DNA from: Planctomycetota bacterium
Lineage (GTDB): Bacteria > Planctomycetota > UBA11346
Direction: 5' to 3'
Length of the DNA: 64,000 bases
Assembly: GCA_038231435.1 (NCBI GenBank)
Contig: JBBRLJ010000023.1
Coordinates: forward strand, 1-64,000
The translations under genes were made by a program, and so were the position numbers. Within the stretch, counting starts at the first letter, position 1. The number at the start of each line of letters is the position of its first letter. The notes under the pieces were generated by a model, which was given only the letters and a program-made list of their open reading frames with translations, did not search any database and was not told the origin of the DNA. Of the stretch, positions 1-42,997 are shown piece after piece.

Positions 1-46
1 AAGAAGGACGACAAAGGCCGTGGGGGCCGGGGGCGAAGCCCCCGCA
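1..46 (-). repeat. Structured repeat family A, reverse copy, truncated by the window edge
   Basis: Reverse complement reads GGGGGCTTCGCCCCC-GG-CCCCCACGGCC-TTTGTC-GTCC, the same head architecture as the other copies. Confidence 0.7.
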
Positions 47-52
47 CAAAAA

Positions 53-180
53 GGCCTACCCCACGGGCTTTGTCGGGGCTCGGTTTCTCCGCTTCGCTAC
101 GAAACCGTCGGCGGATCGGCTTCGCCGATTGTATCCGCCGCCCGCCCCTCGGCGCCCGCCCCATCGCTGGGCGATGGGGC
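53..180 (+). repeat. Structured repeat family A, forward copy
   Basis: GGCCTACCCCACGGGCTTTGTCGGGGCTCG...GCCCCTCGGCGCCCG, closely matching the copies at 3644-3818, 39956-40278 and 42868-42997. Confidence 0.9.
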
Positions 181-208
181 CCCCGTCCCATCGGGCGGCC
201 CAGCCGCC

Positions 209-256
209 CGGCCGCCGAGTCCTGGTTTGCGTGAACAATGGGCGCAGCCCATCACG
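209..256 (-). repeat. Structured repeat family A, reverse tail fragment
   Basis: Plus strand GCCGAGTCCTGGTTTGCGTGAACAATGGGCGCAGCCCATCACG matches 9054-9097; reverse complement ends GGAC-TCGGC-GGCCG. Confidence 0.75.
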
Positions 257-259
257 GAT

Positions 260-1570
260 TTAGCCGTTGGGAAAATAAACGACTTTTTCCTGCGTGTAAT
301 CCAGCAGCGTCGCCATCGTGCCTTCGCGTCCAGTGCCTGAATCCTTCATGCCTCCGTAGGGCAGGCGGTCGTCGCGGCGGCCGGGCACGTCATTCACCAC
401 CAGGGTTCCCACGCTCAGGCGCTCGAAGGCGGTCGCGATCGCGGCGCGATCGGCGCTGAACATGCCGGCCTGCAAGCCGAACGGGGTATCGTCGGCGATC
501 GCCAGGGCGTGGTCGAGATCACGGTAGGCGTGCAGCGTGGCGATCGGCGCGAAGACCTCGCTGTCGCGCACCTGCGGATGCGCGGCTGGTACGCCGTCGA
601 CCAGCGTCGGCTCCAGCACCAGGCCGTTCCACCGGCCGCCAGCGAGCACGCGTCCGCCGGCGGCGCGGTAGGCGTCGAGCACGCCATCGATGCGCGCCTT
701 GGCGCGTTCGTCGATCACTGGGCCGCACACGGTGCGTTCATCCCACGGGTCGCCGGTGGGGACGCGCGCGAAGGCGGCCACCAGCGCGTCGCGCCATGCC
801 ACGCTCAGCGCGGGAGTCTCGGGGATGAGGATGCGCTGCACGCTGATGCACACCTGTCCGGCGTTGGCGGTGGCGCCGCACGCCACGGTGTCGGCGATCG
901 CGGCCATGGCCGGTTGCGCGATGTCCTCGCCGAGGATGACGGCGGCGTTGCCGCCGAGCTCGAGCAGGCATCTCGCCGAGGTCGCCAGGCGTCGGAGCTG
1001 CTTGCCGACCGGGACCGAGCCCGTGAACGACATCACCGCCAGGCGCGGGTCGGCGCACAGTCCGGCGACCTCGTCGTTGGACAGCTGCCGCACGGTGACC
1101 ATTCCGGGCGGTGCGCCAGCGCGTCGCAGCAGCTCGAGCGTTGCCTCGGCGACGCCGGGCGCAAGCGGGCTCGGCTTCCAGATCACTGGGCAACCGGCGG
1201 CGATGGCGGGGCACAGCTTGTGCAGCGAGAGGTTGAGCGGAAAATTGAACGGGGTCACCGCCAGCACCGGCCCGAGGGGGACGCGGTGGATCTCGCCGCG
1301 CGCTCCGGAGCCGAGGTCGACGCTGCGCGGTTCGAGCGAGGCCATCGCCTGGGCGGTGCCGCGGATGGTGCCGAGCCCTCGCGCGACCTCGATGCGGCTG
1401 AGCGCGATCGGTTTCGCCGTCGCCGCCGTGATCGCGCGCGCCAGATCCTCGGCGGCTCCTTCGACCAGGGTCGCGAAACGTCCGAGGATCAGCCGCCGCT
1501 GGGCGAGCGGCGGCGGGACGAACGTGCGCAGCGCATTGAGATCGACGGAATCATCGGTCGGTTGGATCAT
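260..1570 (-). CDS. Aldehyde dehydrogenase family protein
   Basis: TPFNFP, SFTGS, LELGGN, AGQVCISVQR (catalytic Cys), EVFAP, PYGGMKDSG motifs. Confidence 0.93.
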   Translation of the reverse strand: MIQPTDDSVDLNALRTFVPPPLAQRRLILGRFATLVEGAAEDLARAITAATAKPIALSRIEVARGLGTIRGTAQAMASLEPRSVDLGSGARGEIHRVPLGPVLAVTPFNFPLNLSLHKLCPAIAAGCPVIWKPSPLAPGVAEATLELLRRAGAPPGMVTVRQLSNDEVAGLCADPRLAVMSFTGSVPVGKQLRRLATSARCLLELGGNAAVILGEDIAQPAMAAIADTVACGATANAGQVCISVQRILIPETPALSVAWRDALVAAFARVPTGDPWDERTVCGPVIDERAKARIDGVLDAYRAAGGRVLAGGRWNGLVLEPTLVDGVPAAHPQVRDSEVFAPIATLHAYRDLDHALAIADDTPFGLQAGMFSADRAAIATAFERLSVGTLVVNDVPGRRDDRLPYGGMKDSGTGREGTMATLLDYTQEKVVYFPNG

Positions 1571-1591
1571 GGCTACCTCCGCAGAGCGGGC

Positions 1592-2941
<1,350 letters not shown>

Positions 2942-3058
2942 GGCCGCACGGTATCCCATATCGACGGAAGCACTACGGGGCCTGGTCCGGAACGGGCCAG
3001 ACTTTCGCTCGAGCAAAATCCATGGTATCTCCTACTCCACCGTCCCCGAGAGGATCCC

Positions 3059-3640
3059 ATGCGTCAGCTGCTCTTGTTCGTGCTCATCACCGCGGGTCTG
3101 TGTGCCACCGGCTGCGGCGGCCCCCGCTACATGGAGCCCGGTTCACGACTCGACGCGCCGCCCGCGGGCAAAGCGCTGGTGAACGTCCACCGCCCCTCGA
3201 CGGCGTACGGCTCAGGCGAGGACCTCATCGTCTGGGACGGCGAGCAGGTCATCGGCAACACCCACGGCAAGGACATGTTCCAGTACGCTTGCGATCCCGG
3301 CCACCACGTCTTCCACGCCAAGCATCTGAATGTCTCGCTGCTGACCGCCGATCTCGTCGCCGGCAAGACCTACGACATCGTCAGCGATTGCGGTCCGAAC
3401 TTCGTGCCGTTCCAGCCCGGTTTCCGCCTGTGGCTGAACGCCGTCGGTCCGGATCGCGAAAGCCAGGTCGGCCAATGGCTGGGCAAGGAGACCACCCTGG
3501 TGCTCTCGCCCAAGGCCGAAAGCGAGCGCCTGACCTACCAGAAGAAGCACCTCGCCGACGTCACCCGCTACGTCCACGATTACACCGAAGGCGATAAGAA
3601 GGACAAGGCTTCGGCGATTCCCGCCAGCGCGGGGCATTAG
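3059..3640 (+). CDS. Hypothetical lipoprotein
   Basis: Signal peptide with lipobox-like ATGC, AGGA upstream, typical codon usage. Confidence 0.75.
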   Translation: MRQLLLFVLITAGLCATGCGGPRYMEPGSRLDAPPAGKALVNVHRPSTAYGSGEDLIVWDGEQVIGNTHGKDMFQYACDPGHHVFHAKHLNVSLLTADLVAGKTYDIVSDCGPNFVPFQPGFRLWLNAVGPDRESQVGQWLGKETTLVLSPKAESERLTYQKKHLADVTRYVHDYTEGDKKDKASAIPASAGH

Positions 3641-3643
3641 CAT

Positions 3644-3818
3644 TCAGGGGCGAAGCCCCTGATTACATCCGGAGCGACAGCGACCGGGCGCCGAGGGGCG
3701 GTGGGCGGATACAATCGGCGCAGCCGATCCGCCCACGATGTCGCAGCGAAGCGGAGACATCGAGCCCCGACAAAGCCCGTGGGGTAGGCCCGCAGGGCCG
3801 TAGGGGCGGAGCCCCTGA
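3644..3818 (-). repeat. Structured repeat family A, full reverse copy between convergent genes
   Basis: Reverse complement matches 39956-40088 closely; bounded by AGGGGC-NNN-GCCCCT hairpins at both ends. Confidence 0.9.
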
Positions 3819-3826
3819 AAAAAATG

Positions 3827-4837
3827 TCAGCGCTTGGATTCACCCGGCCACCAGATGCCGATCTGGTGGCGGAGGTCGTCGAGCAGCTTCATGCCGGCGA
3901 GGCTGTCGGCCCAGGTGCAGGTAGGTGAGTGGCGCGCCTCGCGGTACTCGGCAACGGCCAGCGCTTCGCGCGCGTACAGGGCGATGCCGTCGTCGGCGGT
4001 GATGCGGTCGTCGGGCTTGCCGGGAATGCGGACGATCAGCGGTGCGTTCGGCGGGCACCGCCACGGCTCGACCACCTCGATGGAGCCGAGCGAGCCGTAG
4101 ATGGTCGCGGCGCTCGGCTGCGCGCAGCGCACGGCGGTGGCGAAGGTGCCGATCGCGCCTGAGGGGAAGCGCAGCACCCCGGCGGCCCATTCGTCGACGC
4201 CGGTCGCGCCCTTGATGCCGGCGGCCTTCGCCGAGATCGGCTCGGCGCCGACGATCCAGCGCATCCAGCTCAGCGGATAGACGCCCACATCCATCAGCCC
4301 GCCGCCTCCTTGCTCGGGCGCGAACAAGCGCGGCCGGTCCATGCCCGATCCGTCGAAGGCGAACACCGCGTGCAGCATGCGCACCTCGCCAATGACGCCG
4401 TCGGCGAGCAGCTTGCGCAGCGTCGCGTAGCGCGGATGGCAGCGATAGGCGTAGGCTTCCATGAAGAACACGCCGGCGCGCTCGACCGCCGCGAGCACGG
4501 TGCCGAGTTCGGCCGCGGTCATCGCCGCTGGCTTCTCGCAGAGGATGTGCTTGCCGGCCTGGGCGGCGGCGATCGACCAGCGCGCGTGCTGGTGGTTGAG
4601 CAGGCTGATGTAGACCGCGTCCACGCCCGGATCGGCGAGCACCGCCTCGTAGGAGCCGTGCGCGGCGCAGCCGCCATGCGCGGCGGCGAAGGCCGCGGCC
4701 TTGGCCGCGTCGCGGCTGCCGACCGCGGTCAACGCGGCGCGCTCGCCGAGCGTGGCCAGGTCCTTGGCGAATTTCCCGGCGATGTTGCCAGTGCCGAGGA
4801 TGCCCCAGCGCAGCTTCCTGCTCAGTTGAGTGCTCAT
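3827..4837 (-). CDS. Gfo/Idh/MocA family oxidoreductase
   Basis: WGILGTGNIA Rossmann motif, GKHILCEKP, GGGLMDVGVY. Confidence 0.93.
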   Translation of the reverse strand: MSTQLSRKLRWGILGTGNIAGKFAKDLATLGERAALTAVGSRDAAKAAAFAAAHGGCAAHGSYEAVLADPGVDAVYISLLNHQHARWSIAAAQAGKHILCEKPAAMTAAELGTVLAAVERAGVFFMEAYAYRCHPRYATLRKLLADGVIGEVRMLHAVFAFDGSGMDRPRLFAPEQGGGGLMDVGVYPLSWMRWIVGAEPISAKAAGIKGATGVDEWAAGVLRFPSGAIGTFATAVRCAQPSAATIYGSLGSIEVVEPWRCPPNAPLIVRIPGKPDDRITADDGIALYAREALAVAEYREARHSPTCTWADSLAGMKLLDDLRHQIGIWWPGESKR

Positions 4838-6198
4838 GGCGAACCGGGTCCCGGAGGCGCGGGGGCCCGGTTGCCGGCATCGGCCGAGGCCTTGGTGATG
4901 GCCGCGATCACGGCGGCGGCCGCGAACTCGCCGCTCCATCGGGCCAGTTCCTGGCCCTCGCGCGACTGCAGCACCGCGAGTGGCGTGCGGCCAACGAAAC
5001 GCAGCTGCGACAGCCTGGCCTTGTCGCCCTCGACGAGTTCCGCCACAGCGGCGGCATGCGCTCTAGCCTGGCGCTCGAGCGCGTCGACGCCCACAGCCTG
5101 CCCGGACGGTCCGTGCGCGAGCTCGGTATCGCTCGCTCCCGGGTGGCTGCCGAGCATGGCCGAGACATACGCGCGATGGCGGCCCTCGGCCGCGGCGGCG
5201 AAGGCCCAACGCGCGAGCGATGGGCTGGCCGGTTCATAGGCGCGGACCACGTGGCGCACGATCACGCGCACGCGCCCGTCGGCGAGGGGATCCGCCAGCG
5301 CGCGCATCAGCGCATCGTGGAGCTCGGCGCAGTGCGGGCATTGGAAGTCGATGGCCAGCTCGAGCGTCAGCGTCGCCTCATCGACGCCGATCCGCCGGCC
5401 GGTGTCCGCGGAGCGTTCCCAGGCGCGCTCGGCGGCATCGAGCGGGGCGAGGACGGCCCCTGGATGCGGCGGCTCGACGTCGACGCGCAGCGCCGGCCCA
5501 TACGCCACCAGCAGCAGCAGGAATCCGGCGGTGGCGGAGGCGATGCGCGAGAAGGCGCGCAGATGTCCCGCGCGCAGCGGCCCGATCAGCGCCAGCACCG
5601 CGGTGTGGTAGGCCAGGCACTGGTGGCAGGCGGAGCCGAGGCGGAACGAGGTCATCAGGTAGAAGGCGCTGCCGCCGACCATCGCCCAGGCGAAGGCCTG
5701 GATCCAGGCCGGCGTCGGCGGGTCGTCGGCCTGGTCGGGGCGCGGACGGCTCCACAGGTGACAGCTGGCGAGGGCGACCTGCAGCGCGAGGGAGGCGTAG
5801 AAGGCGAGCTTCACCACCGGGGTGCTGCCCAGGTATTCGTAGCCCCTGCCGCCCTGGCAGGCGATGTCGCACGGCCACCAGGTCGGCTGGTGGCGCGCGA
5901 GCAGCAGCGCCGCAGCGACCAAAACGGTGATCGCCGAGAGGTGCTCGAGCCAGCGCCGGTCGCCGCGCAGGCGCCTGCCGACCAGCCAGGAGCCGACCAC
6001 GACGAGGATAGAGAGGAGAGCGGCGAGCGCCGTCGGCGCCCAGCGCCACGACGACACCGCGACGATGTCCGCACCGAGCAGCGAGAGCCCGACCACGGCA
6101 CCTGGCAGCGCCAATTTTCGCCGCAGCCTGCCCGACACCGCCGTGACTCTCGCGGACACGCTTGCGGAGAGCCGCTTCGAGATCCGTTCGAGCGTCAT
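4834..6198 (-). CDS. Membrane VKOR-like domain fused to a DsbA/thioredoxin domain
   Basis: Several TM segments with CDIAC loop cysteines and CHQC; C-terminal DFQCPHC and a RTP cis-Pro-like motif. Confidence 0.7.
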   Translation of the reverse strand: MTLERISKRLSASVSARVTAVSGRLRRKLALPGAVVGLSLLGADIVAVSSWRWAPTALAALLSILVVVGSWLVGRRLRGDRRWLEHLSAITVLVAAALLLARHQPTWWPCDIACQGGRGYEYLGSTPVVKLAFYASLALQVALASCHLWSRPRPDQADDPPTPAWIQAFAWAMVGGSAFYLMTSFRLGSACHQCLAYHTAVLALIGPLRAGHLRAFSRIASATAGFLLLLVAYGPALRVDVEPPHPGAVLAPLDAAERAWERSADTGRRIGVDEATLTLELAIDFQCPHCAELHDALMRALADPLADGRVRVIVRHVVRAYEPASPSLARWAFAAAAEGRHRAYVSAMLGSHPGASDTELAHGPSGQAVGVDALERQARAHAAAVAELVEGDKARLSQLRFVGRTPLAVLQSREGQELARWSGEFAAAAVIAAITKASADAGNRAPAPPGPGSP

Positions 6199-6674
6199 TC
6201 CTTCTCGGCCAGTCCGAGCACGATCTTTGGCGATAGCAGCAGCCGCAGCTCCATCTTGCCGGCGAACGGCTCGCCCTCGAGCATGGCGATGCCCGCCTTC
6301 TTGAGCGGCACCGCCTGGCCGCCGAGCAGATGGCCGAGGAACGCGCCGAGGTCGGGCTCATGGCCGACCAGCGCGACGTCGACGACCTTGGGCAGTTCGC
6401 GTAGCCAGATCTCAGGAGCCGCGGCGCCGCCGGATAGCCAGGCGACCTCGCGCAGCGGCAGTTTCCAGGCCACGCTGGCGAGCTCGGCGGTCTGGCGCGC
6501 GCGCGTCCACGGCGAGGTCCAGACTTCGTCTGCCTTCACGTACGGCTTCACCAGCTTGAACACGCGGGTCGCCTGCTCGATGCCATCCTTGGTCAGGGGG
6601 CGTTCGCGATCGTCCTGGGGACGCCACTGCTCGCGATCGAGGGCCTTGCCGTGGCGAACGAGGATCAGGCGCAT
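6195..6674 (-). CDS. sixA: Phosphohistidine phosphatase SixA family
   Basis: LILVRHG, RPLT, SPWTRARQTA, LVGHEP. Confidence 0.88.
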   Translation of the reverse strand: MRLILVRHGKALDREQWRPQDDRERPLTKDGIEQATRVFKLVKPYVKADEVWTSPWTRARQTAELASVAWKLPLREVAWLSGGAAAPEIWLRELPKVVDVALVGHEPDLGAFLGHLLGGQAVPLKKAGIAMLEGEPFAGKMELRLLLSPKIVLGLAEKE

Positions 6675-6826
6675 GTGGCTCCTCGCTGAACATGGCACGC
6701 TGGAGCGGCAAATCCACACCGAGGAGGAGCTGCATGCACGTCGACTGGCGGGACCACTCCTGGCGCTGGCGCGCGGTGCGCTTGCACGATCACGTGCACC
6801 GCTAGCGTACCCGGCCCGGAGACGCC

Positions 6827-8140
<1,314 letters not shown>

Positions 8141-8158
8141 TACGGCCTGGGCGGGCCT

Positions 8159-8974
8159 TCACGGGTGCGCCCCACGTTTTTTGCGTTCGATTCCCGCGAG
8201 ACGCATGCCGGCGCGGATCAGCCACGGTGCGTGCCGGTAGAGCCACACCGCGCTGCGGCCATGGCCGGTGATCACGCGCTCGCGCGCACCGCGCGCGATA
8301 GCGCGCACCATGATGCGTGCCGCGCGATCGGCGCTCAGCTGCAGCCACGCCGGCGCGTCGTCAGCCGCCTCGGCGCGCAGCACACCGTGATTGTCGGTGC
8401 GGCGGATCTCGCTCTGGACGAATCCGGGACTCAGCAGGGTCACGCACACGCCCGCTGGCTCCAGTTCGTCGCGCAGGGATTCGCAGAACGCGCGCACCGC
8501 GAACTTGCTCATGCCGTATGGCGAGGCGCCGGGCATCGGTACATGGCCCATGACGCTGCCCATCACCGCGAGGCGGCCCTTGCTGGCGGTGAGGTCGGCC
8601 AGCGCGGCCCGCGCGGTGCGCAGCACGCCGAAGACGTTGGTCTCGAACTGGCGGCGGTAGTCGTCGAGCGACAGGTCGGCAAAGCGGCCGATGACGCCGA
8701 AGCCGGCATTGGCGATGGCGATGTCGAGTCCACCGAAGCGCTCGCGCGCCACCGCCACCGCGCGTTCGGGATCGCCGTCGATGCACACGTCGCAGGCGAC
8801 CGCCAGCGCTTCCGTTCCCGCGGCGGCGAGCTCGGCGCGCAGGAGCTCGAGCCGATCCACACGGCGCGCCGCGAGCACCAGCCGCGCTCCGCGTCGCGCA
8901 TACTCACGCGCCAACGCCTCGCCGATCCCGGACGAAGCGCCCGTGATGAGCACGCGGAGTCCAGTGGCGGCCAT
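8159..8974 (-). CDS. Short-chain dehydrogenase/reductase
   Basis: TGASSGIG, NAG, YGMSK catalytic motif. Confidence 0.92.
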   Translation of the reverse strand: MAATGLRVLITGASSGIGEALAREYARRGARLVLAARRVDRLELLRAELAAAGTEALAVACDVCIDGDPERAVAVARERFGGLDIAIANAGFGVIGRFADLSLDDYRRQFETNVFGVLRTARAALADLTASKGRLAVMGSVMGHVPMPGASPYGMSKFAVRAFCESLRDELEPAGVCVTLLSPGFVQSEIRRTDNHGVLRAEAADDAPAWLQLSADRAARIMVRAIARGARERVITGHGRSAVWLYRHAPWLIRAGMRLAGIERKKRGAHP

Positions 8975-9049
8975 GGGCAAAGCATGTCCCGCACCCCGGC
9001 CACGCCAAGCTCCGCGGTGATGCTCAGGATCGCACCCCCCGACTTCCCC

Positions 9050-9168
9050 CGAGCGCCGAATCCTGGTTTGCGTGAACCATGGGCGGAGCCCATCACGCAA
9101 ACTTTTGGCCGCCCGGCGGACAAAAAGAGGGATGACAAAGCTCGTGGGGGTTTGGGGGCAAAGCCCCC
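9050..9168 (-). repeat. Structured repeat family A, divergent reverse copy
   Basis: Reverse complement: GGGGGCTTTGCCCCC-AA-ACCCCCACGAGC-TTTGTC-ATCC...GGAT-TCGGC-GCTCG with two internal hairpins. Confidence 0.8.
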
Positions 9169-9171
9169 GAC

Positions 9172-9357
9172 TTAAGAGTCAGTGCGGCCCTTCTCGACTA
9201 CACTCCACTCGCCATCCTCATCCTCCTGGTAGGCGGTGTAGCGGTAGACCGAGGACTGCGAGACGGCCCACGAACGGAACCCTTCGAGCGAGGCCCAGCG
9301 CTCCTCGCGCTCCTCGCCGTCGGAAGAGATGAAATGGATGAGGAACCCGGAGGACAT
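9172..9357 (-). CDS. Small hypothetical protein (61 aa)
   Basis: MSSGFLIHF...; globular-looking, Trp/Tyr/acidic composition unlike GC-rich shadow ORFs. Confidence 0.65.
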   Translation of the reverse strand: MSSGFLIHFISSDGEEREERWASLEGFRSWAVSQSSVYRYTAYQEDEDGEWSVVEKGRTDS

Positions 9358-9530
9358 CCCTGTCCACTGTCGCCACCGGGCGCGGCCTTGGCAAGCCCAG
9401 GCGCCAACAGGCATCAACCATCGACCGATAGCAGAAAACCGATGATCGGCACCCATCACCATCCGCGCACGCCGTTCAAGGCCCCGTGGCGCGGCGAGGG
9501 GATGCCATAGGCTGCGGACCGGAGACGGGC

Positions 9531-10652
<1,122 letters not shown>

Positions 10653-10657
10653 ATTTC

Positions 10658-15120: not shown

Positions 15121-15123
15121 CCC

Positions 15124-25890: not shown

Positions 25891-25928
25891 GGGGAGGAGT
25901 TTCGGGGGTCAGGACGACGAACAAGCTA

Positions 25929-26015
25929 TTGGTTGGGGGGCTCTTGGTTGGGGGGCTACGGCCCCCCAACATCGGCCTCCGGCCTGCCCCCCAGGAGCCA
26001 GGGTGCAGGGTAGGA
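25929..26015. repeat. Structured repeat family B, copy 1
   Basis: GGTTGGGGGG..CCCCCCAACATCGGCCTCCGGCCTGCCCCCCAGGAGCCAGGGTGCAGGGT, matching 26908-27039. Confidence 0.8.
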
Positions 26016-26149
26016 AGAGGGCCGGGTCGCTGCGCTTCCGGCCGCGCGTGCGCGGCTCTTTTGACTGTGCACTTCGATCTTCCGACTTCTTGGGTTTCCT
26101 GCGCTTTCCGCTTTCCGCTGCGCGCTCCGTCTCCATCGTGTCCGCCCTC

Positions 26150-33790: not shown

Positions 33791-34041
33791 TGCAGAGCGT
33801 CCGGTGAGGAGCGGATGCCGAGCCTGTGGCGGATGGGTGTGCGCGGCGGGTATGGGCCGAATGGTTCGCTCGCCGCTCGCCGCTCTCCTCTCGCTGCAAG
33901 CCTTCTGCCCTTAGCCCCCATAGGAGCCCCCAGATGAACAGTAATTTGACATCGGCTCATCCCAGCGTGTGATACCGGGCCTCATTCCCGTACCGTCCCG
34001 CTTCTTAAACACGCGGACAGAGCCAGCGCCGAGGATCGATA

Positions 34042-35067
34042 ATGGTCAAAGAGAAAGCCAGCCAGGAAGAGATCTACCGCGTCATGCGGTCGGACATCGA
34101 AGCCGGGGGCTATCCTGCCTCCAGCCGGCTGCCATCCGTCCGCACTCTGGCCAAGCGCTTCTCGGCGAGCCCGAACACCATCTCCAAGGTGGTGAGCCGC
34201 CTGATGGAATCGGGCCTGTGCACCGCGCGCCGCGGCGTCGGCCTGTTCGTGCGCAGCCTGCCCAACCGCAAGTTGACGCTGCTCGTCGGCACCACCTCCG
34301 ACCAGCCGAAGGACGACTTCTACGGACATGTCGAGAAGCGCATCGCCGAGCGCTGCCAGGCGGACGGCATCGAGATCGAGCGCTACCACATCACCCCTGG
34401 CGATCCGGCCTACGGCCCCGACGTCGATCGCATCCGCCGCCCGGGCAGAGTGATCCTCTGCATCGGCCTCGCCCACGAGCCGCATCTGAAGCAGCTTGCC
34501 GATCTGCGCCGCCCGATGCTGGTGGTCGGCTGCGCGCCGAGCCGCTGCAACGCTTCCTCGATCGTGCCCAACAGCTTCCGCTCCGGCTACCTCGCCGCGC
34601 GGCACCTGATCCGCAAGGGCTGCCGCCGCATCGCCTTCATCGGCCGCGTGCGCGAAGTCCGCGGTGTGACCCTGCCCGAGGCCGAGAGCCTCAAGGAATT
34701 CGCGGGCATGCAGTGCGCCTTCATGGAGGACACGCTGCCGCTGCATTCGGAGCTGGTGTTCAACGACATCGCCCAGGTCGCCGCGCGCGCTGCGACGCTC
34801 AAAGAGATGCCCGACGCGGTGATCATGCCCGACATCGACGGCATCGAAGCGATCCAGACGATGAAGGCCCTCGGCAGCAAGCTCGAGCGCGTGGTGCTTG
34901 GCGACGACCGCATCCTCGAGCGCCCCAAGCGCCCCGCCGCGGTCGTGGTCAAGCGCGAGGACGTGGTCGAGCTCGCTCTCATGGAACTCCACCGCCTGCT
35001 CGACGAGCAGAGCAAGTCCCATCGCGCGATGAGCGTCGATGGTGAGCTGCACGACGCCGTCGGCTGA
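34042..35067 (+). CDS. GntR-family regulator with LacI-type ligand-binding domain
   Basis: RLPSVRTLAKRF...RRGVGLFV winged HTH; periplasmic-binding-protein-like C-terminus. Confidence 0.88.
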   Translation: MVKEKASQEEIYRVMRSDIEAGGYPASSRLPSVRTLAKRFSASPNTISKVVSRLMESGLCTARRGVGLFVRSLPNRKLTLLVGTTSDQPKDDFYGHVEKRIAERCQADGIEIERYHITPGDPAYGPDVDRIRRPGRVILCIGLAHEPHLKQLADLRRPMLVVGCAPSRCNASSIVPNSFRSGYLAARHLIRKGCRRIAFIGRVREVRGVTLPEAESLKEFAGMQCAFMEDTLPLHSELVFNDIAQVAARAATLKEMPDAVIMPDIDGIEAIQTMKALGSKLERVVLGDDRILERPKRPAAVVVKREDVVELALMELHRLLDEQSKSHRAMSVDGELHDAVG

Positions 35068-35092
35068 GCCCGAGGGCCGAACGGCTCACGGC

Positions 35093-35347
35093 ATGAGCCG
35101 TTCGCTGCTCATCGTCGTCTCGATCTGCATGGTGCTCTCCTCGTACGTCGGGGGCTACGCCTGGTGGCGAGTCCGTGATCCGAGGTATCCGGGCATCTAC
35201 CACGGCGGGGTGTTGCGCTTCCAGAAACCCGCGACGGCGATGAACCGCTTCTGCTTCACCTTGTTCGCTCCACTGCGTTGGCTGGATGAGCGCTATCAGC
35301 ATCGGCGCGTCCAATTGTACGATCCGAACCGGTATCCGGGACTGTGA
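35093..35347 (+). CDS. Small hypothetical membrane protein
   Basis: N-terminal TM ending SYVGGY, later LFAPLRWLD. Confidence 0.6.
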   Translation: MSRSLLIVVSICMVLSSYVGGYAWWRVRDPRYPGIYHGGVLRFQKPATAMNRFCFTLFAPLRWLDERYQHRRVQLYDPNRYPGL

Positions 35348-35549
35348 TCAGTGCAACGCGGGTGATGGAAAGAGAGCTGCGCGTCGAGGCGTGTCATCTC
35401 TCGTCTGATTCACGAAACCGAAGAACGCCCACCAAGACGTGTCCTCTATCGAGCTTCTCAGATTCTCCCTCGTCCCTCGAATCCCGATTCGACATGAAGG
35501 GAAACAAGCTCGAAGCTCGGAAACGAGAAGCCGCCGGCCCCGCGCGGAA

Positions 35550-36959
35550 TCAGATGTCCCGCAGCGCCCGCTCCGCCTCGCCGAATTCCTTCGGCAACTG
35601 CGAGTCGATCTCGAGCGCCGGCCCGCCCGCAGGATGCGGCAACAGCACCTTCGACGCATGCAGCAGATGCCTCGGCACATGGATGGGATCCGCGCGGTCG
35701 CCGTAGAGGCGATCGCCGTAGAGCGGATGGCCCATCTCGCTGAAATGGATGCGGATCTGGTGGTATCGGCCGGTCTGCGGCTCGACGCGCACGCGGCTGC
35801 CGTAGGTGCCGAGGCGTTCCTCGACCGTCCAGGTGGTGATCGCCTCGCGCGCGTCCTGGCCGCGGCCGCTGCGCCAGCGCTCATAACCCACGCCGCTGTC
35901 GACCTTGACCAGGTAGCTCTTGCGGGTGCCGCTCTCGCGCGGATGGCCGCGCACGATGGCGTGGTAGGTCTTCTTCACCGCGTGGTCCTTGAACATCTCT
36001 TCGAGCCGGCGCGCGATCTTGGCCTCGCGCGCGAACAGCACGATACCCGAGGTGTCGGCGTCGAGGCGGTGCACGGGGATGATGTCCTCGCCGACCTCGA
36101 GCTTGAGGATGTCGAGCAAGCTCCAGCTCTTCGGGCCTTCGGTCGGCGTCACCGGCAGCCATGCCGGCTTGTCATAGGCGAGGACGCCGCCGCCGTCGTG
36201 CAGCACGCGGTCGCCATCGAAATGGTGCTCGTGGCTCTCGGGCAGGAAGAATTCGACGATGTCGCCGACTTCGAGTTCGCGGCTGCCGAAGGTCTCGATG
36301 CGGCCGTTGAGGCGGCAGCAGCCGAGCTCGAGGTGGCGCCGCGCGGCGCGTCCCGAGAGGTGCTTGTGCATGTGCACCAGAAAAGCCGCGAGCTTCATTC
36401 CCGATTCGGCGCGGATGATGCGCGCGTTGGGGCCCGGACGCCACACGGCGCCGCGATCGGGACGCGCCGGGCGTCCGCGATGGCGGGCATCGCCGTCGAT
36501 GCCGGCGTCCGCGTGACGCGCGTCTCCACGCGGGCCTTTGCCCGACGCGCGATCCGGACGCTGGCGGATGTCGGGGCGGGGACGACCACCAGTATCGCGG
36601 CGATCGCCTCGTGGGGTGCCACGCGCGTCGCTTCGCGATCCCCGGTCTCCACCGGTCGATCCGCGCCGTTCGTCGGGCCGTCGGCGGTCCTCAGGCCGCT
36701 GCCGTTGGGCGCGAGCGCCGCCTTCAGGGCGCGGCTTTCCTGGACGCGCGCCGTCGGCGCCGCGGCGCGGAGTTCCTCCGCTACGGGTGCGCGGGACATC
36801 GGATCCGCGCTCGGGACGCTCGTCCGAGGATCCGCGCTGATCGCGTGAGCCGCTGCGGTCTCCGCGTGGCGAGCGCTCGCCGTGGCCGTCGCGGCGCTTG
36901 CGGCGGTCGTCATCGGAGTGGTCGGAACGGCCGCGCATGCGGCTGGGGGGTCGGGCCAT
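35550..36959 (-). CDS. RluA-family pseudouridine synthase with long charged N-terminal extension
   Basis: S4-like segment, DKP, VHRLDADTSG, TGRYHQIRIH, GHPLYGD. Confidence 0.9.
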   Translation of the reverse strand: MARPPSRMRGRSDHSDDDRRKRRDGHGERSPRGDRSGSRDQRGSSDERPERGSDVPRTRSGGTPRRGADGARPGKPRPEGGARAQRQRPEDRRRPDERRGSTGGDRGSRSDARGTPRGDRRDTGGRPRPDIRQRPDRASGKGPRGDARHADAGIDGDARHRGRPARPDRGAVWRPGPNARIIRAESGMKLAAFLVHMHKHLSGRAARRHLELGCCRLNGRIETFGSRELEVGDIVEFFLPESHEHHFDGDRVLHDGGGVLAYDKPAWLPVTPTEGPKSWSLLDILKLEVGEDIIPVHRLDADTSGIVLFAREAKIARRLEEMFKDHAVKKTYHAIVRGHPRESGTRKSYLVKVDSGVGYERWRSGRGQDAREAITTWTVEERLGTYGSRVRVEPQTGRYHQIRIHFSEMGHPLYGDRLYGDRADPIHVPRHLLHASKVLLPHPAGGPALEIDSQLPKEFGEAERALRDI

Positions 36960-36961
36960 GA

Positions 36962-37900
36962 TCAGTCGCCGAGGTGCTGGAGGAATTCGTCGAGCGGCAC
37001 ATCGCGCGCGTCCGAGGGTGGCTCGAGGCGCATGCGCTCGTCGCTGATCGCCGGGAGGCCGTCGAAGCGGCCGATGGTGAAGATGATCTCGCTGAGGTCG
37101 CCGGCCACGGCGACGCGCGCCTGGGTGGGCCGCCGCTGCTCGTCGAACTGCTTGTAGCGCGAGTAGGTGATCGACACGACCTGCTTGCCATCGGCTTGGA
37201 GCAGACGCTTGGCGTCCACCACGCGCTCGCTCGCATCGATGTCGAGCTCGGCGACCAGACCGCCGCCCGCCGGGCAGGTGATGGTGTCCTTCTTCGCGCC
37301 TGCGTGGAACGGGCCCATCAGGGGCAGCGGTCCGGCGGTGAGCTCGCTGGCGATCATGGTCAGCTGCAGCAGCAACTGGGTTTCCGCCGCGGTCGGAGCC
37401 TGGTCTTTGCGTTCTTTCGTCTGAACGGACGGCTGTACGGACGGCTGCTGATCCGCGCGTGGAGTCGTGTCGCCTCCGTGGATCCCTCCACGGAGATTGC
37501 CGTGCGCGCTGAGCTTCGCGCGCGGCAGCCAGGCCGTGTAGGTGCCGTCGGCGGCCACCAGCGCCGAGCAGAACTCGACGTCGACCTTGGTGGCGTTCAC
37601 GCGCACGCGGCCGTCGGGGGCGCACCACAGGTAGAGCTGGAAGGTCTGGGCGTCCTGGTCTGGCTGCTTGATGCGGATGTTGGCGCGCGCCGCGGCGGCG
37701 GGAGTCTGGCCGAGCCGCTGCGCCACGCCGATCGCGGTGGCGGTAGCTTCGGCGTTCCGGTCGACCCCCGCCGCGTCCTCGGCACGCGGGACGTCGTCGC
37801 GCTTGGCCGGACGCACGTCGCCGCAGCCGATGGACGACATGGCGGAGGCCAGGCCGGCGATCGCCAGTCCCGCGGTGATCGCGCCGCGCACGACGCGCAT
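36962..37900 (-). CDS. Hypothetical lipoprotein (possible LolA/LolB-like fold)
   Basis: SIGC lipobox; beta-rich; start overlaps the rimO stop. Confidence 0.65.
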   Translation of the reverse strand: MRVVRGAITAGLAIAGLASAMSSIGCGDVRPAKRDDVPRAEDAAGVDRNAEATATAIGVAQRLGQTPAAAARANIRIKQPDQDAQTFQLYLWCAPDGRVRVNATKVDVEFCSALVAADGTYTAWLPRAKLSAHGNLRGGIHGGDTTPRADQQPSVQPSVQTKERKDQAPTAAETQLLLQLTMIASELTAGPLPLMGPFHAGAKKDTITCPAGGGLVAELDIDASERVVDAKRLLQADGKQVVSITYSRYKQFDEQRRPTQARVAVAGDLSEIIFTIGRFDGLPAISDERMRLEPPSDARDVPLDEFLQHLGD

Positions 37901-39195
37901 CACGCCACCGCTTCCGCGACCAGGTCGTAGCCGCGCACGCCGGTGACTCGCGCGGTGGTCCATTCGCCGATCATTGCGGACTCGGCGTGGAGGATGGTCG
38001 CCCCATCGACCTCGGAGGCCTGGCCGTAGTGGCGGGTGGCATAGACGCCGAAATCCCGCTGCGCATCGACCAGCACGCGCAGCTCGCGACCCTTCCAGCG
38101 GGCGAGGCGGGCGCGGTGGAGGCGCTTCTGCTGAGTCATGAACGCATGGTGGCGGCGCTGGATGATCTCGGCGTCGACCTTGTGCTTCATCTTCTCGGCG
38201 GTGGTGCCGTCCTCGTCGCTGTAGGTGAAGCAGCCGACCGAATCGAAGCGCTGCTCACGCGCGAATTCCATCAGCTGTTCGAAGTCCTCGTCGCGCTCGC
38301 CCGGGAAACCGACGATGAAGGTGGTGCGCAGCACCACCTCGGGCATCGCCTGGCGGATACGGTCGAGGCGTTCGGTGATGCGCGCGCGGTCGGTGCGCCG
38401 CCCCATCGCCGCGAGGGTGCGGTCGGAGGCGTGCTGGATCGGCATGTCGACGTACTTGACGATGTTCTCGGTCTCGGCCATCGCGGCGATCAACTCGTCG
38501 CTGAAGTCGTTCGGGTAGCAGTAATGCAGGCGCACCCAGGCGCGGGGGGCGGCCGCGGCAATCGCCCGGACCAGCTCGGGCAGGCGCCGGCTCCCGTACA
38601 AGTCCTGCCCGTAATAATCGAGGTGCTGCGAGATCAGATTGATCTCCTTGACCCCGCGTTCGGAGAGGGTGCGCGCCTGGGCGACCAGATCGGCGAACGG
38701 CCGCGAGCGGTGCTTGCCGCGGAAGAGCGGGATGGCGCAGAAGTTGCAGGTGTTGTCGCAGCCTTCGGCGATCTTCAGGAAGGCGAAGTGCGGGGGGGTG
38801 AGCTGGCTGCGCTGGTCATGGGTCAGCCGATGCTCGGGAATGTCCGGGAAATGGCTGCGGACCACCGCGGGGAAGCGGTCGTAGTCCTTGAAAACCACCC
38901 ACTGGTCGACCTCGGGCATGTCCCGCTCGAGCTCGCAGCGGTAGCGTTCCGTGAGACAGCCGGCCACGAACAGCTTGGCCCCCGGCTTGCGCCCGGCGGC
39001 GGCCTCGAGGATGTGCCCGATGGACTCCTGCTTGGCACCCTCGATGAACGAGCAGGTGTTGACCAGCACCAGGTCCGCCTGGTCGAGGCGGTCAGTCAGA
39101 GCGAAGTCGACCGAGCGCAGGGCCGTCACCAGGTCTTCGCTGTCGGCCAGGTTCTTGGAGCAGCCGAGGCTGATGAGCGCTGCGTGGCGTGGCAT
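37900..39195 (-). CDS. rimO: Ribosomal protein S12 methylthiotransferase
   Basis: SLGCSKN, NTCSFI, KIAEGCDNTCNFCAIP radical SAM motif, RTTFIVGFPGE, TRAM C-terminus. Confidence 0.95.
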   Translation of the reverse strand: MPRHAALISLGCSKNLADSEDLVTALRSVDFALTDRLDQADLVLVNTCSFIEGAKQESIGHILEAAAGRKPGAKLFVAGCLTERYRCELERDMPEVDQWVVFKDYDRFPAVVRSHFPDIPEHRLTHDQRSQLTPPHFAFLKIAEGCDNTCNFCAIPLFRGKHRSRPFADLVAQARTLSERGVKEINLISQHLDYYGQDLYGSRRLPELVRAIAAAAPRAWVRLHYCYPNDFSDELIAAMAETENIVKYVDMPIQHASDRTLAAMGRRTDRARITERLDRIRQAMPEVVLRTTFIVGFPGERDEDFEQLMEFAREQRFDSVGCFTYSDEDGTTAEKMKHKVDAEIIQRRHHAFMTQQKRLHRARLARWKGRELRVLVDAQRDFGVYATRHYGQASEVDGATILHAESAMIGEWTTARVTGVRGYDLVAEAVA

Positions 39196-39444
39196 GAGCC
39201 CGTTACTGTCGCACTTTCTCGCAGATGTCCATCATTTGATGGCGCAAAACCCGCGCAAAGCCCCCACGCCCCTGCCCACATCCACGGGCTTGCCACTCGC
39301 GAGCTCCGGTCTCCAGGCCTCGAGCTCCACGCTTCGAGTTTCCCCGCTTCCGTCTCAATCCGCTTCCTTCATCCCATCTGCTGCACCATCAGACACCTTG
39401 ACTGTTGCGTGCTGCCGCTTCGACTGCGGTCGCTGGAGCACGGT

Positions 39445-39945
39445 TTGTCCAAGAAGGATGTTCCAGGTCTGACACTGCGCATGGCGACCCCAGAGGACGC
39501 CGCGGTGCTCAACGACATGATCGGCGCTTTCGCCGCATACGAGCGGCTACCGAACCAGTCGACGGCCGAGGCGCTGCGCGCCGAGTTCGCGCGCCCTGAT
39601 CGGGTGGTCGAGGCGGTCCTGGCCTTCCTCGATGGGGTCCCCAGCGGCTTCGCGGTCTTCTTCCAGACCTACTCGACCTTCATCGCCAAGCGCGGCATCT
39701 ATCTCGAGGACATCTACGTGAAGGAGGAGTACCGCAATCGCGGCATCGCCACCTCGCTGCTGCGCTTCATCGCCCGCACCGCCATCGAACGCCAATACGG
39801 CCGCGTCGAGTTCACCGTGCTCCTGTGGAACACCATCGCGATCGAGTTCTTCGAGACGCTCGGCGCTACCCCCACCAGCGCTTGGACGACCTACCGCCTC
39901 AGCGGCGAGTGGCTGCAGAAACTGGCGAGCGAATCATCGCAATGA
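39445..39945 (+). CDS. GNAT N-acetyltransferase (SSAT-like)
   Basis: YSTF...IYLEDIYV...RNRGIA...VLLWN..AIEFF; TTG start after GGAG. Confidence 0.88.
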   Translation: MSKKDVPGLTLRMATPEDAAVLNDMIGAFAAYERLPNQSTAEALRAEFARPDRVVEAVLAFLDGVPSGFAVFFQTYSTFIAKRGIYLEDIYVKEEYRNRGIATSLLRFIARTAIERQYGRVEFTVLLWNTIAIEFFETLGATPTSAWTTYRLSGEWLQKLASESSQ

Positions 39946-39955
39946 CTGTTTGTTG

Positions 39956-40088
39956 AGGGGCTCCGCCCCTACGGCCCTGTCGGGCCTACCCCACGGGCTT
40001 TGTCGGGGCTCGATGTCTTCGCTGCGCTGCGACATCGTGGGCGGATGGGCTACGCCCATTCTATCCGCCCACCGCCCCTCGGCGCCCG
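39956..40088 (+). repeat. Structured repeat family A, tandem copy 1
   Basis: Direct sequence match to the other copies. Confidence 0.92.
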
Positions 40089-40100
40089 CGCTTGTATTTT

Positions 40101-40278
40101 CAGGGGCTTCGCCCCTACGGCCCGGTGTCCCCCTTCGGGGAGGCTTCGCGCGGCCTACCCCACGGGCTTTGTCGGGGCACGATGTCTTCGCTACGCTGCG
40201 ACATCGTGGGCGGATGGGCTACGCCCATTCTATCCGCCCACCGCCCCTCGGCGCCCGCCCCATCGCTACGATGGGGCC
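40101..40278 (+). repeat. Structured repeat family A, tandem copy 2
   Basis: Core nearly identical to 39988-40088; tail hairpin GCCCCATCG..CGATGGGGC shared with 158-180. Confidence 0.92.
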
Positions 40279-40358
40279 CTTTTTGGCTGCTTGTCGCATT
40301 GAGGGCGTCGCTGGCGGGGGCCTGAGCCCGCGGCCTCGCGGTATCCACGGCTTGGCGA

Positions 40359-40916
40359 TCAGAGCGCGACCTTGTCTCCGGCCTTGGCATCCGCCGGCTT
40401 GGGCTTCTTCTCCTTCTCGTGCTTCGGCACCGGTTCGGATACCACGTCGCCGGGGATCTCGATGGTGATGTCGGAGAGCCGCTTCCCGGCCTGGAAGAGG
40501 TTGCCGACCACGATCGCGCAATCGTAATTGTCGGTACCGACATCCGGGCGAATGCTCCAACGCAGATCGAGTTCGAGCGGAGTGAGGGGAGGTAGCTCGG
40601 CGATGCGCGCAGCGGTGACAGGGACGTCGTCGCGGCGATAGGCGTCGGCGCTGAAGGAGCGGCCTTCCACCTGGGCGCGGAATCCGGTCAAGGTGTCGCC
40701 GAGGTTCTTCAGCTCGACGGATGTCTCGCTGAGGTTCTCGAGGCGCAGGCGCACCGCCAAGTGGTCGTCGCGGCGATCGATCGCGACGATGCAGGCGCTG
40801 ACCGCTCCGTTGCTGGCGGATGGCGGAGCGCTGACCGGCTCGGCTGGACGCTCGCGATCATGGTGGTGGCATGCGGCCGCGAGCATGATGGGGAGCAGCA
40901 GGGCGAGGATCCGCAT
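40359..40916 (-). CDS. Hypothetical lipoprotein (paralogue of the neighbour)
   Basis: LAAAC lipobox; aligned motifs with 40985-41503. Confidence 0.75.
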   Translation of the reverse strand: MRILALLLPIMLAAACHHHDRERPAEPVSAPPSASNGAVSACIVAIDRRDDHLAVRLRLENLSETSVELKNLGDTLTGFRAQVEGRSFSADAYRRDDVPVTAARIAELPPLTPLELDLRWSIRPDVGTDNYDCAIVVGNLFQAGKRLSDITIEIPGDVVSEPVPKHEKEKKPKPADAKAGDKVAL

Positions 40917-40984
40917 GGAGTGTCCCGATCGTTTATTGGGTCAGGCGAGCATCCGGCGGCCACCGTCATGACGGCGGTCGGGCG

Positions 40985-41503
40985 TCACTTGGTGGTGTCG
41001 GGGGCGTAGCTCAGGGTGAGGTCGGGGATCTTCTTGTCGTCGATGAACATGTTGGTGATGGTGAGCGTCCACGGGTAGGTGTTGTGGGCGAGCGCCGGCT
41101 CGAAGGTGTACTTCAGGTCAAGCTCGGCTTCGGCCCCTGGGGCGAGCTCGCGTAGGCGCGCTGCGCGCGCCTTGGTGGCCTGCATCTTGCCGGCATCGGC
41201 GCCGATCGCCTCGCGGCCATCGGCGGCCACCTTGAACCCGCCCACGCGCAGCGATTCGGGGTTCTTGAACAGCACGGTCTGCTTGCCGGTGTTCTGCAAG
41301 GTGACGTTGATGTAGAGCGTCTTGTCGCGCTCCTTCATGGAGGTGGCGGTGGCCTTGACGCCGGCGTCGTTGGCGTCGGAGCCGTTGAGCACGACGGTCT
41401 CCGGCCGCTTGCCACCTCCGCACGAGGCGAGGGTCAGGGCGATGGCGATGAACGGCAGGGCGATGATGACGCGGATGTCGTTACTGCTGCTGGGATGGCG
41501 CAT
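40985..41503 (-). CDS. Hypothetical lipoprotein (Ig-like beta sandwich likely)
   Basis: LASC lipobox; INVTLQNTG, ELAPGAEAELDL. Confidence 0.75.
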   Translation of the reverse strand: MRHPSSSNDIRVIIALPFIAIALTLASCGGGKRPETVVLNGSDANDAGVKATATSMKERDKTLYINVTLQNTGKQTVLFKNPESLRVGGFKVAADGREAIGADAGKMQATKARAARLRELAPGAEAELDLKYTFEPALAHNTYPWTLTITNMFIDDKKIPDLTLSYAPDTTK

Positions 41504-41616
41504 GGGAGCTCCTTCGGGGGCTGCGAGGGTCGAGCCTGCGGCGGCGCGCGCAACCGGTTTTGCATCCCTGGCAATGCCGGGCACAGCGGTAGGATCAGGC
41601 CTTCCTGGAACCGACC

Positions 41617-42891
41617 ATGACTCCGCCACGCACACCCGCTCGCATCAAGCCCAGCTCCCACCTCGCGGACGTCCGCTATGAGATCCGCGGCCCATTGGCC
41701 CGGCGCGCCCTCGAGCTCGAGAAGGCCGGCTTCGAGATCATCAAGCTCAACATCGGCAATCCCGGCGCGTTCGGCTTCGCGATGCCCGAGAGCATGCGTC
41801 GCGCGATGATCGACAACCTTCCCGCTTCCGAGCCCTACTGCCATCAGAAGGGCATCTTCCCCGCCCGCGAGGCGGTGGCGATGCAGCAGCAGGCGCGCGG
41901 AGTGCGCGACGTGACTGCCGACGACGTGTTCATCGGCAATGGCGTGAGCGAGCTGATCATGATCGCGCTGCGCGGGCTGCTCGAGGATGGCGATGAGGTG
42001 CTGGTCCCCAGCCCCGACTATCCCCTGTGGACCGCGGCAGTGACCATCAACGGCGCGAAGGCCGTGCACTATCCGTGCCCACGCGAGACCGGCTTCATCC
42101 CCGACATCGAGGCGCTGCGCGCGCTGGTGACGCCGCGCACGCGCGCGCTGGTCATCATCACGCCCAACAATCCCACCGGCGCGGTGTATCCTCGCAAGCT
42201 ACTCGAGCAGATGGTTGCGCTCGCCGAGGAGCATCAGCTGGTGGTGTTCTCGGACGAGATCTACGACCAGATCCTCTACGAGGGCGCCGAGCACGTGCCG
42301 GTGGCGACGCTGGTGAAGAACACCCTGTGCGGGACCTTTGGCGGGCTGTCCAAGGTCTACCGCGCCTGTGGCATCCGCGTGGGCTGGCTGGTGTTCAGCG
42401 GCGAGCGCAGCCAAGCGAACGACTACATGCTGGCGCTCGATCTGCTCGCGAGCCTGCGCTTGTGCGCGAACGTGCCCGGTCAATGGGCGGTACAGACCGC
42501 GCTCGGTGGCCATCAGAGCATCCTCGAGCTCACCGCTCCCGGTGGCCGGCTCTTCCAGACGCGCAAGGCGGTGATCGATGCCGCGAAGCGCAGCAAGTAC
42601 CTCGAGGTGGCGATCCCGAAGGGAGCCATCTACGCCTTCCCGCGGGTCAAGCCGGGAACCATCCGCGATTTCGACGACAAGCGCTTCGCGCTCGACCTGC
42701 TCGAGCGCAAGCACGTTCTGGTCGCGCCGGGCACGAGCTTCAACGTCCCGTACCGCGATTCGTTCCGCATCACCCTGCTTCCCGACGAGCAGGTGATGGC
42801 CGACGTGTTCCGTCGCATCGAGGGACTGCTCGATGAGTACTGTTTGTCCGCTGCAGAGCAGCGGGCCAGGGGCTCCGCCCCTACGGCCTAG
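41617..42891 (+). CDS. alaA: PLP-dependent aminotransferase, AlaA/AlaT type
   Basis: YEIRGP, KLNIGNP, GNGVSELI, PDYPLWTA, NNPTG, DEIYD, GLSKVYR. Confidence 0.9.
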   Translation: MTPPRTPARIKPSSHLADVRYEIRGPLARRALELEKAGFEIIKLNIGNPGAFGFAMPESMRRAMIDNLPASEPYCHQKGIFPAREAVAMQQQARGVRDVTADDVFIGNGVSELIMIALRGLLEDGDEVLVPSPDYPLWTAAVTINGAKAVHYPCPRETGFIPDIEALRALVTPRTRALVIITPNNPTGAVYPRKLLEQMVALAEEHQLVVFSDEIYDQILYEGAEHVPVATLVKNTLCGTFGGLSKVYRACGIRVGWLVFSGERSQANDYMLALDLLASLRLCANVPGQWAVQTALGGHQSILELTAPGGRLFQTRKAVIDAAKRSKYLEVAIPKGAIYAFPRVKPGTIRDFDDKRFALDLLERKHVLVAPGTSFNVPYRDSFRITLLPDEQVMADVFRRIEGLLDEYCLSAAEQRARGSAPTA

Positions 42892-42997
42892 CGGCCTACC
42901 CCACGGGCTTTGTCGTGGCTCGTTTTCACCGTTCCGGTGAAAACGAGGGCGGATGGGCTTCGCCCACCGCCACTCGGCGCCCGGTCGCTGCGCTCCG
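42868..42997 (+). repeat. Structured repeat family A, variant copy overlapping the alaA stop
   Basis: Same head and core, with the compensatory pair GTGGC/GCCAC and a different internal hairpin. Confidence 0.88.

Follow-up and report, generated by a model that had tools for sequence, protein, structure and literature searches.

Copies of the element in the window

The first 64,000 nucleotides of contig JBBRLJ010000023.1 (contig C23, forward strand) in the Planctomycetota bacterium assembly GCA_038231435.1, here called the window, contain dispersed copies of a folded repeat built around the motifs TTTGTC and TCGGC. The repeats form a real, multicopy family that extends far beyond the window, the element is mobile, and its fold appears to be selected in single-stranded DNA (ssDNA). 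The source genome, G000, has 5.2 Mb, 67% GC, 108 contigs and a completeness of 87.6%. Its copies fall into two subfamilies, A and B, with 167 and 84 matches to the subfamily motif. Read in the direction of TTTGTC, a unit begins with CT and a T-rich leader, followed by a head hairpin, stem P1, TTTGTC, stem P2, two internal hairpins, P2', TCGGC, P1' and a tail.

At the start of the contig lies the head end of a subfamily-B unit (1..53, minus strand; leader 53-44, head hairpin 43-29, then P1, TTTGTC and one P2 arm), truncated by the contig start and joined into the second hairpin of a neighbouring A unit. This A unit (53..185, plus strand) has lost its head hairpin and retains a core at 69-158 and a tail hairpin. 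Tail-to-tail with it stands the 3' half of a second B unit (186..246, minus strand; hairpin 2, P2', TCGGC, P1' and tail), cut off beside the stop codon of an aldehyde dehydrogenase gene (260-1570, minus strand). A complete A unit at 3644..3826 (minus strand; leader 3826-3817, head 3816-3802, core 3786-3684, tail) sits between convergent genes and has an additional bare head hairpin at 3660-3646. The complete B unit at 9045..9178 (minus strand) has a leader (9178-9169) that holds the TAA stop of a short upstream open reading frame (ORF). Another complete A unit (39946..40088, plus strand) has its CT leader directly after a TGA at 39943-39945, and is followed in tandem by a second A unit (40089..40278, plus strand) with its own leader, an enlarged second hairpin and a tail hairpin. 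An A unit with a shortened hairpin 2 (42840..42997, plus strand) has inserted into the 3' end of an aminotransferase gene, the stop codon of which (42889-42891) is now inside the unit. Finally, a copy of a sister family, C, stands behind a truncated head at 25926..26044 (plus strand); it is a module of CT, leader and head with no TTTGTC/TCGGC core.

A previous sequence-only reading of the window had listed eight stretches of shared architecture, with variants of P1, P2 and the internal hairpins. All eight were found where it had placed them, and the variants are present as described. It had pieced together the CGGCC and GTCC stem variants from the fragments at 1-46 and 209-256, which actually belong to two different subfamily-B copies, and had overlooked both the CT-plus-leader end and the coreless sister copy at about 25941-26044.

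A multicopy family with a covarying fold

A descriptor of the core (TTTGTC...TCGGC, requiring four or more of the five P1 pairs and all four P2 pairs) had 159 matches in G000 and 0, 0 and 0 in three shuffled genomes. A profile search of G000 returned 333 unit matches at 198 intergenic loci. Single units make up 99 of the 198 loci; their ends are unlike each other and carry no terminal inverted repeats. Contig ends hold 84 of the 198 loci, the assembly breaking at repeats. The whole element measures about 130–180 nt and, with a multibranched core of some 100 nt besides the head, exceeds the single 20–40 nt hairpin of repetitive extragenic palindromic (REP) sequences.

Covariation of the stems, proposed from the window alone, was substantiated in an alignment of 26 A-type cores from seven genomes. 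In this alignment 97.0% of cells pair, 18 of the 30 pairs differ on both sides, none of 500 shuffled alignments matches the observed pairing, and slid controls are at most 44% paired; because the sequences are related and were chosen with a pairing filter, this counts as support and not as a p-value. Hairpin 1 alone has 46 distinct stem sequences among 178 parsed cores. RNA folding z-scores ranged from -2.8 to -5.6 across 12 folds, on both strands. The supposed constancy of TTTGTC and TCGGC does not hold outside the window: GACAAA, on the opposite strand, becomes GACCAA or GACAGA in relatives, and in a 44-sequence alignment CGA and GAC alone remain fixed. Rfam, which the sequence-only reading had proposed searching, gave no match at gathering score across the window, and the best hit at four loci (E value 0.1) reached 18.9 bits where the gathering score is 74.

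Strand and molecule

The GACAAA strand, opposite the TTTGTC strand on which the sequence-only reading was based, is referred to here as the purine strand. On this strand, GNA accounts for 616 of the 1017 triloops of hairpins, chiefly in the form GC-GNA-GC, against 58 that are TNC and a genomic background of 7.6%. In other genomes, where the head loop has four bases, 37 of 40 loops are GNNA (29 GNYA and 8 GNRA); the GNYA count comes from 24 loci, and one genome supplies 17 of these. The sections of PMC13037366 cited here describe GCGNAGC and GCGNNAGC as DNA mini-hairpins closed by sheared G·A pairs, and give r(GCGAAAGC) a melting temperature of 39 °C, whereas the DNA version melts at 76.5 °C. 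The mini-hairpin d(GCGNAGC)/d(GCGNNAGC), as presented in those sections, has the loop motif of nearly all purine-strand hairpins, but it is a structural motif and not a system, and it tells the molecule, not the enzyme (PMC13037366).

Stems are 97–98% Watson–Crick in the 178 parsed cores, which are those kept by a pairing filter out of 256 raw matches. Their mismatches comprise 12 G·T and 15 A·C, so that neither strand gives a sign of wobble tolerance; a GUC/GGC wobble pairing particular to the TTTGTC strand, as had been suggested, is not borne out by these counts. Going inward along hairpin 1, the first position that does not pair has G opposite A in 76 of 178 cores. The core reads GCCGA/GACAAA on the purine strand, with tandem G·A beside P2 and a junction G that faces an A. 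Energy models did not separate the strands, both of which fold equally well. From the GNA and GNNA loops, the G·A mismatches and the lack of a G·U excess, we infer that the selected fold is that of ssDNA, on the GACAAA strand. The sequence-only reading most likely chose the wrong strand and the wrong molecule. It had left the choice between a structured RNA and an ssDNA mobile element; the second branch is supported by the empty sites, CT end, arrays and DNA-type loops, whereas the first, with its structured RNA or ribozyme on the TTTGTC strand, is not supported, the loop and mismatch chemistry pointing to the other strand as DNA.

Mobility, ends and target sites

Empty sites, a comparison already envisaged in the sequence-only reading, were found in two congeners of G000, namely G001 and G002. 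At both window loci tested (39946..40088 and 42840..42997), the orthologous intergenic regions of these genomes are without the element, their genes being about 80% identical. A search of sequencing runs turned up no RNA data set, and four DNA runs yielded no interpretable empty allele. One end of the element is fixed and consists of (G)C^T, a variable T-rich leader of about 8 nt and the head hairpin. Of 218 heads, 30% have a CT that begins at -10, compared with some 6% at positions farther upstream, and 168 have one within -14..-8, against 52% in composition-preserving shuffles. The opposite end is ragged and imprecise. No target-site duplication was detected among 27 A units, in which 3-, 4- and 5-mers numbered 17, 5 and 1 against an expected 13.1, 4.6 and 1.2. 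New heads have joined within older copies at C or CT, on either strand, and the old remainder has been lost.

Gene positions in G000 were obtained with our own gene caller. None of 196 loci lies within a predicted gene, and 48 of the 109 loci with both neighbours are flanked by convergent genes, against a background of 226 of 2060. The median distance from stop codon to element is 5 nt, and a copy follows 4 of 57 tRNA calls. Where the stop lies at most 5 nt from the head, A or T closes the last codon in 67% of 49 genes, compared with 28.5% across the genome, and there is an enrichment of TAG and TAA stops. The leader thus belongs to the element and provides new stops.

Arrays, doublets and a shared head

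Among neighbouring units in direct orientation, 51 pairs are AA, 15 BB and 3 AB. Tail-to-tail pairs comprise 35 AB, 9 AA and 0 BB, and 6 AB pairs are head-to-head. The A-B inverted doublets seem to resemble bacterial interspersed mosaic elements (BIMEs), and missing or unassembled perfect palindromes could contribute to the pattern. An array of 16 units occurs in G006, and at one locus the copy number differs (5 versus 3 partial units) between two records with flanks 98% identical. A half-unit array, from hairpin 2 to the tail, lies between two tRNA genes (L281, L299), its copy number varying between near-identical records.

Family C has 96–116 copies in G000, depending on the pattern used. 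Its arrangement is that of A and B: the stop codon is followed by CT, a leader, a head hairpin of G-C pairs, a small hairpin with a GNA loop and a C-run. CT stands exactly at -9 in 79 of 96 copies, and the TTTGTC/TCGGC core is absent. Positions in the leader are mostly conserved, and a linker of about 30 nt is hypervariable and G/A-rich. Relatives have at most three matches each to the family-C pattern, an expansion being seen in G000 only among 48 genomes. A further folded body, one long hairpin, lies behind the same CT-leader-head module in G059 (L473:2180-2270), 200 bp downstream of a group II intron. Since the head is common to the A/B, C and G059 bodies, the head and not the core is probably the mobilisation signal.

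Search for a cognate enzyme

Nine types of mobile enzyme were searched in G000 and its relatives; the family set comprises 48 genomes including G000. The HUH-type transposase Y1 (PF01797) occurs in 42 of the 48. G000 has a single full-length Y1 gene, which carries terminal repeats of its own, and a fragment of another where a contig ends; the IS200-like genes of relatives bear other flanks. IS110 genes were found in 28 of 48 genomes and in none of G000, G006, G012 and G020; TnpB was not found in G000. Reverse transcriptase genes were found in 33 of 48 and not in five element-rich genomes including G000, the assemblies being incomplete. Y2_Tnp and Rep_1 were each found in 0 of 5 genomes, control searches of both being silent as well, and Rep_trans in 0 of 5. 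The IS91 zinc domain occurs in 8 of 48 genomes, in G000 as a frameshifted piece on a 1.2-kb contig without heads, and Rpn/YhgA in 9 of 48, with none in G000. A total of 62 loci of searched enzymes gave a single weak repeat match. Pfam comparison of 110 selected neighbour ORFs identified one HNH and one Rpn, the rest being host functions or without a family, and clustering revealed no recurring mobile family. A reverse transcriptase with a head nearby was rejected as a candidate and belongs to a group II intron. Among the loci read, no HUH/RAYT, reverse transcriptase or other nuclease gene is bracketed by copies, as the sequence-only reading had thought it might be. Because assemblies break at repeats, this absence is weak evidence, and a bracketed gene could be unassembled.

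The full Y1 transposase of G000 (L001; G000:C28:21759-24935; 348 aa) has its own short terminal inverted repeats and adjoins a tyrosine integrase gene and two tRNA genes. A mostly single-copy gene similar to REP-associated tyrosine transposases (RAYTs) lies at G000:C25:40497-41333 (L391, L396-L407), where it adjoins an lpxA-like gene. In all 11 homologues viewed the HUH histidines are lost and Trp occupies the position of the catalytic Tyr. Judged from its sequence, it is possibly a domesticated, catalytically dead Y1 protein. It has matches in 29 of 48 family genomes, one of them weak; with one protein query it was not found in three element-bearing genera, and it was rejected as a partner of the element. 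In G006 (L073:600-1700), about eight 147-bp direct repeats copy the 5' part of an adjacent RAYT gene together with REP-like hairpins. Small contigs of G000 (C81, C101, C103, C108 and C97) carry MobA/MobL-like relaxase, IS91-like, IS256-like and IS1380-like genes, named by eye except for the IS91 domain; these contigs may be bin contamination.

Proposed mechanism and alternatives

We lean towards a REP/BIME-like non-autonomous ssDNA element, comprising subfamilies A and B and the coreless sister family C, that would be moved in trans by an HUH-type nuclease. Its working form would be a folded single DNA strand, the purine strand, with P1, the GCCGA/GACAAA internal loop with its tandem G·A, P2 and a three-way junction with two hairpins, followed by a head of one hairpin or two, capped by GNA, and by an A-rich linker. 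A trans-acting Y1/RAYT-like nuclease would bind the folded head, cut at C^T and transfer strands, as TnpA-REP does on BIMEs. Copies would persist at harmless sites (last codons, just past stops or tRNA ends), the T-rich leader often providing a new stop codon. TnpA-REP, in the published sections cited here, binds a REP in its folded form and cleaves ssDNA at CT, and its recombination of BIMEs gives rise to variants and tandem arrays (PMC3333891; PMC8266576). The CT junctions, lack of duplication, nested joins, doublets and arrays are consistent with such chemistry, and a trans-acting HUH/Y1-type enzyme is therefore favoured.

Several observations weigh against such a mechanism. No cognate enzyme was found, none of the nine types tracking the element. 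The flanks of 51 of 134 family Y1 matches include none bracketed by the element and three with one nearby copy, many Y1 loci carry their own, different repeats, and no Y1 subtype is common to all element-rich genomes. CT lies here on the strand opposite GTAG, whereas TnpA-REP cuts CT on the GTAG-bearing strand. GTAG itself is not family-wide, being present in subfamily A of G000 but replaced by GTGG in B and by GCAG or GCGG in several relatives. The likeness to GTAG-REP/RAYT systems noted in the sequence-only reading thus stands for part of the family; it is absent elsewhere, and no repeat-bracketed RAYT gene was found. Replication-strand bias was not detected (35 versus 33), a comparison with weak skew and low power. 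The TTTGTC strand is the mRNA strand of the upstream gene at 165 gene ends versus 57, with which an RNA role also fits. In family C the head loop is c(TACG)g on the mRNA-like strand, which we take to be an RNA-type tetraloop. The dominance of one genome in the GNYA count and the pairing filter behind the Watson–Crick percentages count on the same side.

A smaller but serious possibility is the same folded, mobile ssDNA element served by an enzyme beyond the known Y1/RAYT set (another HUH protein, a primase-polymerase, a recombinase or a host protein), which may write part of the leader anew whenever it inserts. All of the ssDNA and mobility evidence holds equally for it, and the failure of nine known enzyme types to track the element speaks in its favour. 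Leaders are hypervariable (145 distinct among 168); none of seven identical-core pairs at different loci has a leader in common, and one of four identical-head pairs does. At nested junctions with a known target, most leaders match the target at 1–4 bases only. De novo leader synthesis is possible. However, leaders are close to fixed in one other lineage, and the existence of lineage-specific consensus sequences implies that they are for the most part inherited. Recombination that shuffles modules can account for the decoupling of leader and core. Mutagenesis like that of diversity-generating retroelements was rejected, there being no A- or T-specific substitution signature. Also, with 84 of 198 loci at contig ends, an ordinary transposase gene may be unassembled.

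A broader version is unlikely as a whole. It would posit a family-wide modular ssDNA system whose several unrelated bodies (A/B, C and that of G059) are all served by a single short head made of CT, T-rich leader and mini-hairpins, with an enzyme outside the known Y1, Y2, IS110 and reverse transcriptase families. Such a system would target gene 3' ends in a transcription-linked orientation, and its leader, partly made de novo, would yield new stops and C-termini.

An improbable alternative is a structured RNA on the TTTGTC strand (a stabiliser in the 3' untranslated region, a terminator-like element or a ribozyme) that spreads by an RNA route or is kept by host selection. It would explain the orientation bias, the short distance from stops, the excess of convergent neighbours and the copies after tRNA genes, and it accords with the strong RNA folding and the cUACGg-like head loop of family C. 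Against it, there is no G·U excess, both strands fold equally well, Rfam is without a match, and the complement of the TNC triloops is a DNA mini-hairpin. TNC triloops are not known to be stable in RNA. An intrinsic terminator would have its T-run after the hairpin, whereas here it stands ahead of it; no reverse transcriptase was found in the five element-rich genomes (assemblies incomplete), and the sites differ between congeners instead of being conserved. A classical miniature inverted-repeat transposable element of double-stranded DNA, moved by a DDE or IS110 transposase with the A-B inverted doublet as the unit, is very improbable: the tail-to-tail doublets do show similar heads at both ends and IS110 elements use a CT core, but half of the loci (99 of 198) consist of one unit that lacks terminal inverted repeats, there is no target duplication, IS110 is missing from G000, G006, G012 and G020, and strand-asymmetric loop chemistry requires ssDNA.

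Relation to known systems

Like REP, BIME and REPIN sequences with their TnpA-REP (RAYT) proteins, the element of the preferred REP/BIME-like reading has hundreds of intergenic copies downstream of genes, as far as those systems are described in the sections cited (PMC3333891; PMC8266576; PMC6006769; PMC3733652). The same sections report two inverted-paired subfamilies, tandem amplification, CT junctions without target duplication, and GTAG or GTGG 5' of the hairpin, the last found here in part of the element family. Against the 20–40 nt hairpin described there, the element is a multibranched fold of 130–180 nt, with CT opposite the tag strand at a fixed distance of about 10 nt, GTAG not family-wide and no REPtron found. 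It appears to work like a REP/BIME, yet is at most a candidate member of the GTAG-REP/RAYT systems.

The bcr1 repeats of the Bacillus cereus group, and CIR, SPRITE and BOX, are also about 100–155 nt long, with compensatory stem changes and positions that vary between strains, and the cited part of PMC3184786 assigns bcr1 no transposase. In that account, bcr1 differs in its 5-bp direct repeats, its reading as an RNA fold and its phylum (PMC3184786). No sequence likeness to bcr1, CIR, SPRITE or BOX was apparent, and none was looked for. Class 3 TnpA-Y1 repeats, with a CnGA foot, are described from Planctomycetes, and the element has CCGA 5' of a purine-strand stem; in the passages cited they are, however, single hairpins of 25–30 nt with unrelated sequence (PMC6006769). 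A class 3 link was rejected, as the published sequences are unrelated and the class 3 motif occurs in none of 30 translated Y1 loci.

The ends of IS200/IS605, the ori and ter of IS91 and the 3' ends of Helitrons combine an ssDNA hairpin, cleavage a short fixed distance away and no duplication, like the element; they differ in that no autonomous partner with the element's ends was found here and no lagging-strand bias detected. The family is apparently undescribed: no description was found in the literature covered, which included four supplement files of PMC3733652, figure-only supplements and subscription journals being outside the scope.

If correctly interpreted, the element shows that selfish DNA of the REP/BIME type is not limited to short hairpins but includes a multi-way ssDNA fold with covarying stems. 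It also illustrates how a DNA element can mimic a new noncoding RNA in covariation screens, from which GNA/GNYA loop and G·T tests distinguish it. Many host genes have had their last codons rewritten by the element, and short-read assemblies of this lineage break at it. Its precise CT end and a head common to several bodies offer a ready substrate for finding the missing enzyme, and the interest would be greater if that enzyme proved new.

Distribution among genomes

A covariance model of the element had matches in 35 of the 47 other genomes of the family, counts per relative being lower bounds once at 83 matches, and in none of the 144 genomes sampled from the phylum's other families. A scan of a genome collection gave at least 80 loci, and the titles among the matches listed were Planctomycetota, uncultured Brocadiaceae and unclassified bacterium. 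In viral contigs, two specific patterns had no match, and the matches of two looser patterns were rejected as chance or simple phage hairpins; plasmids gave no match. Among the genomes searched, the element is confined to one planctomycete family. Within genera it is patchy, with 82 matches in G006 and none in G022 (96% complete) and G041. A locus in a different genus (L152; G047:C38) is closely like one at the end of contig C33 in G000; mis-binning or transfer is possible.

Unrelated repeats were also noted in relatives. Heptamer tandem repeats lie beside elements, Y1 genes or four-helix-bundle (23S rRNA intervening sequence protein, IVP) genes (L229, L270, L030, L038 and L039). In G006 (L096), past a GNAT-like gene, an unrelated tandem repeat of about 70 bp comes straight after a tRNA gene.

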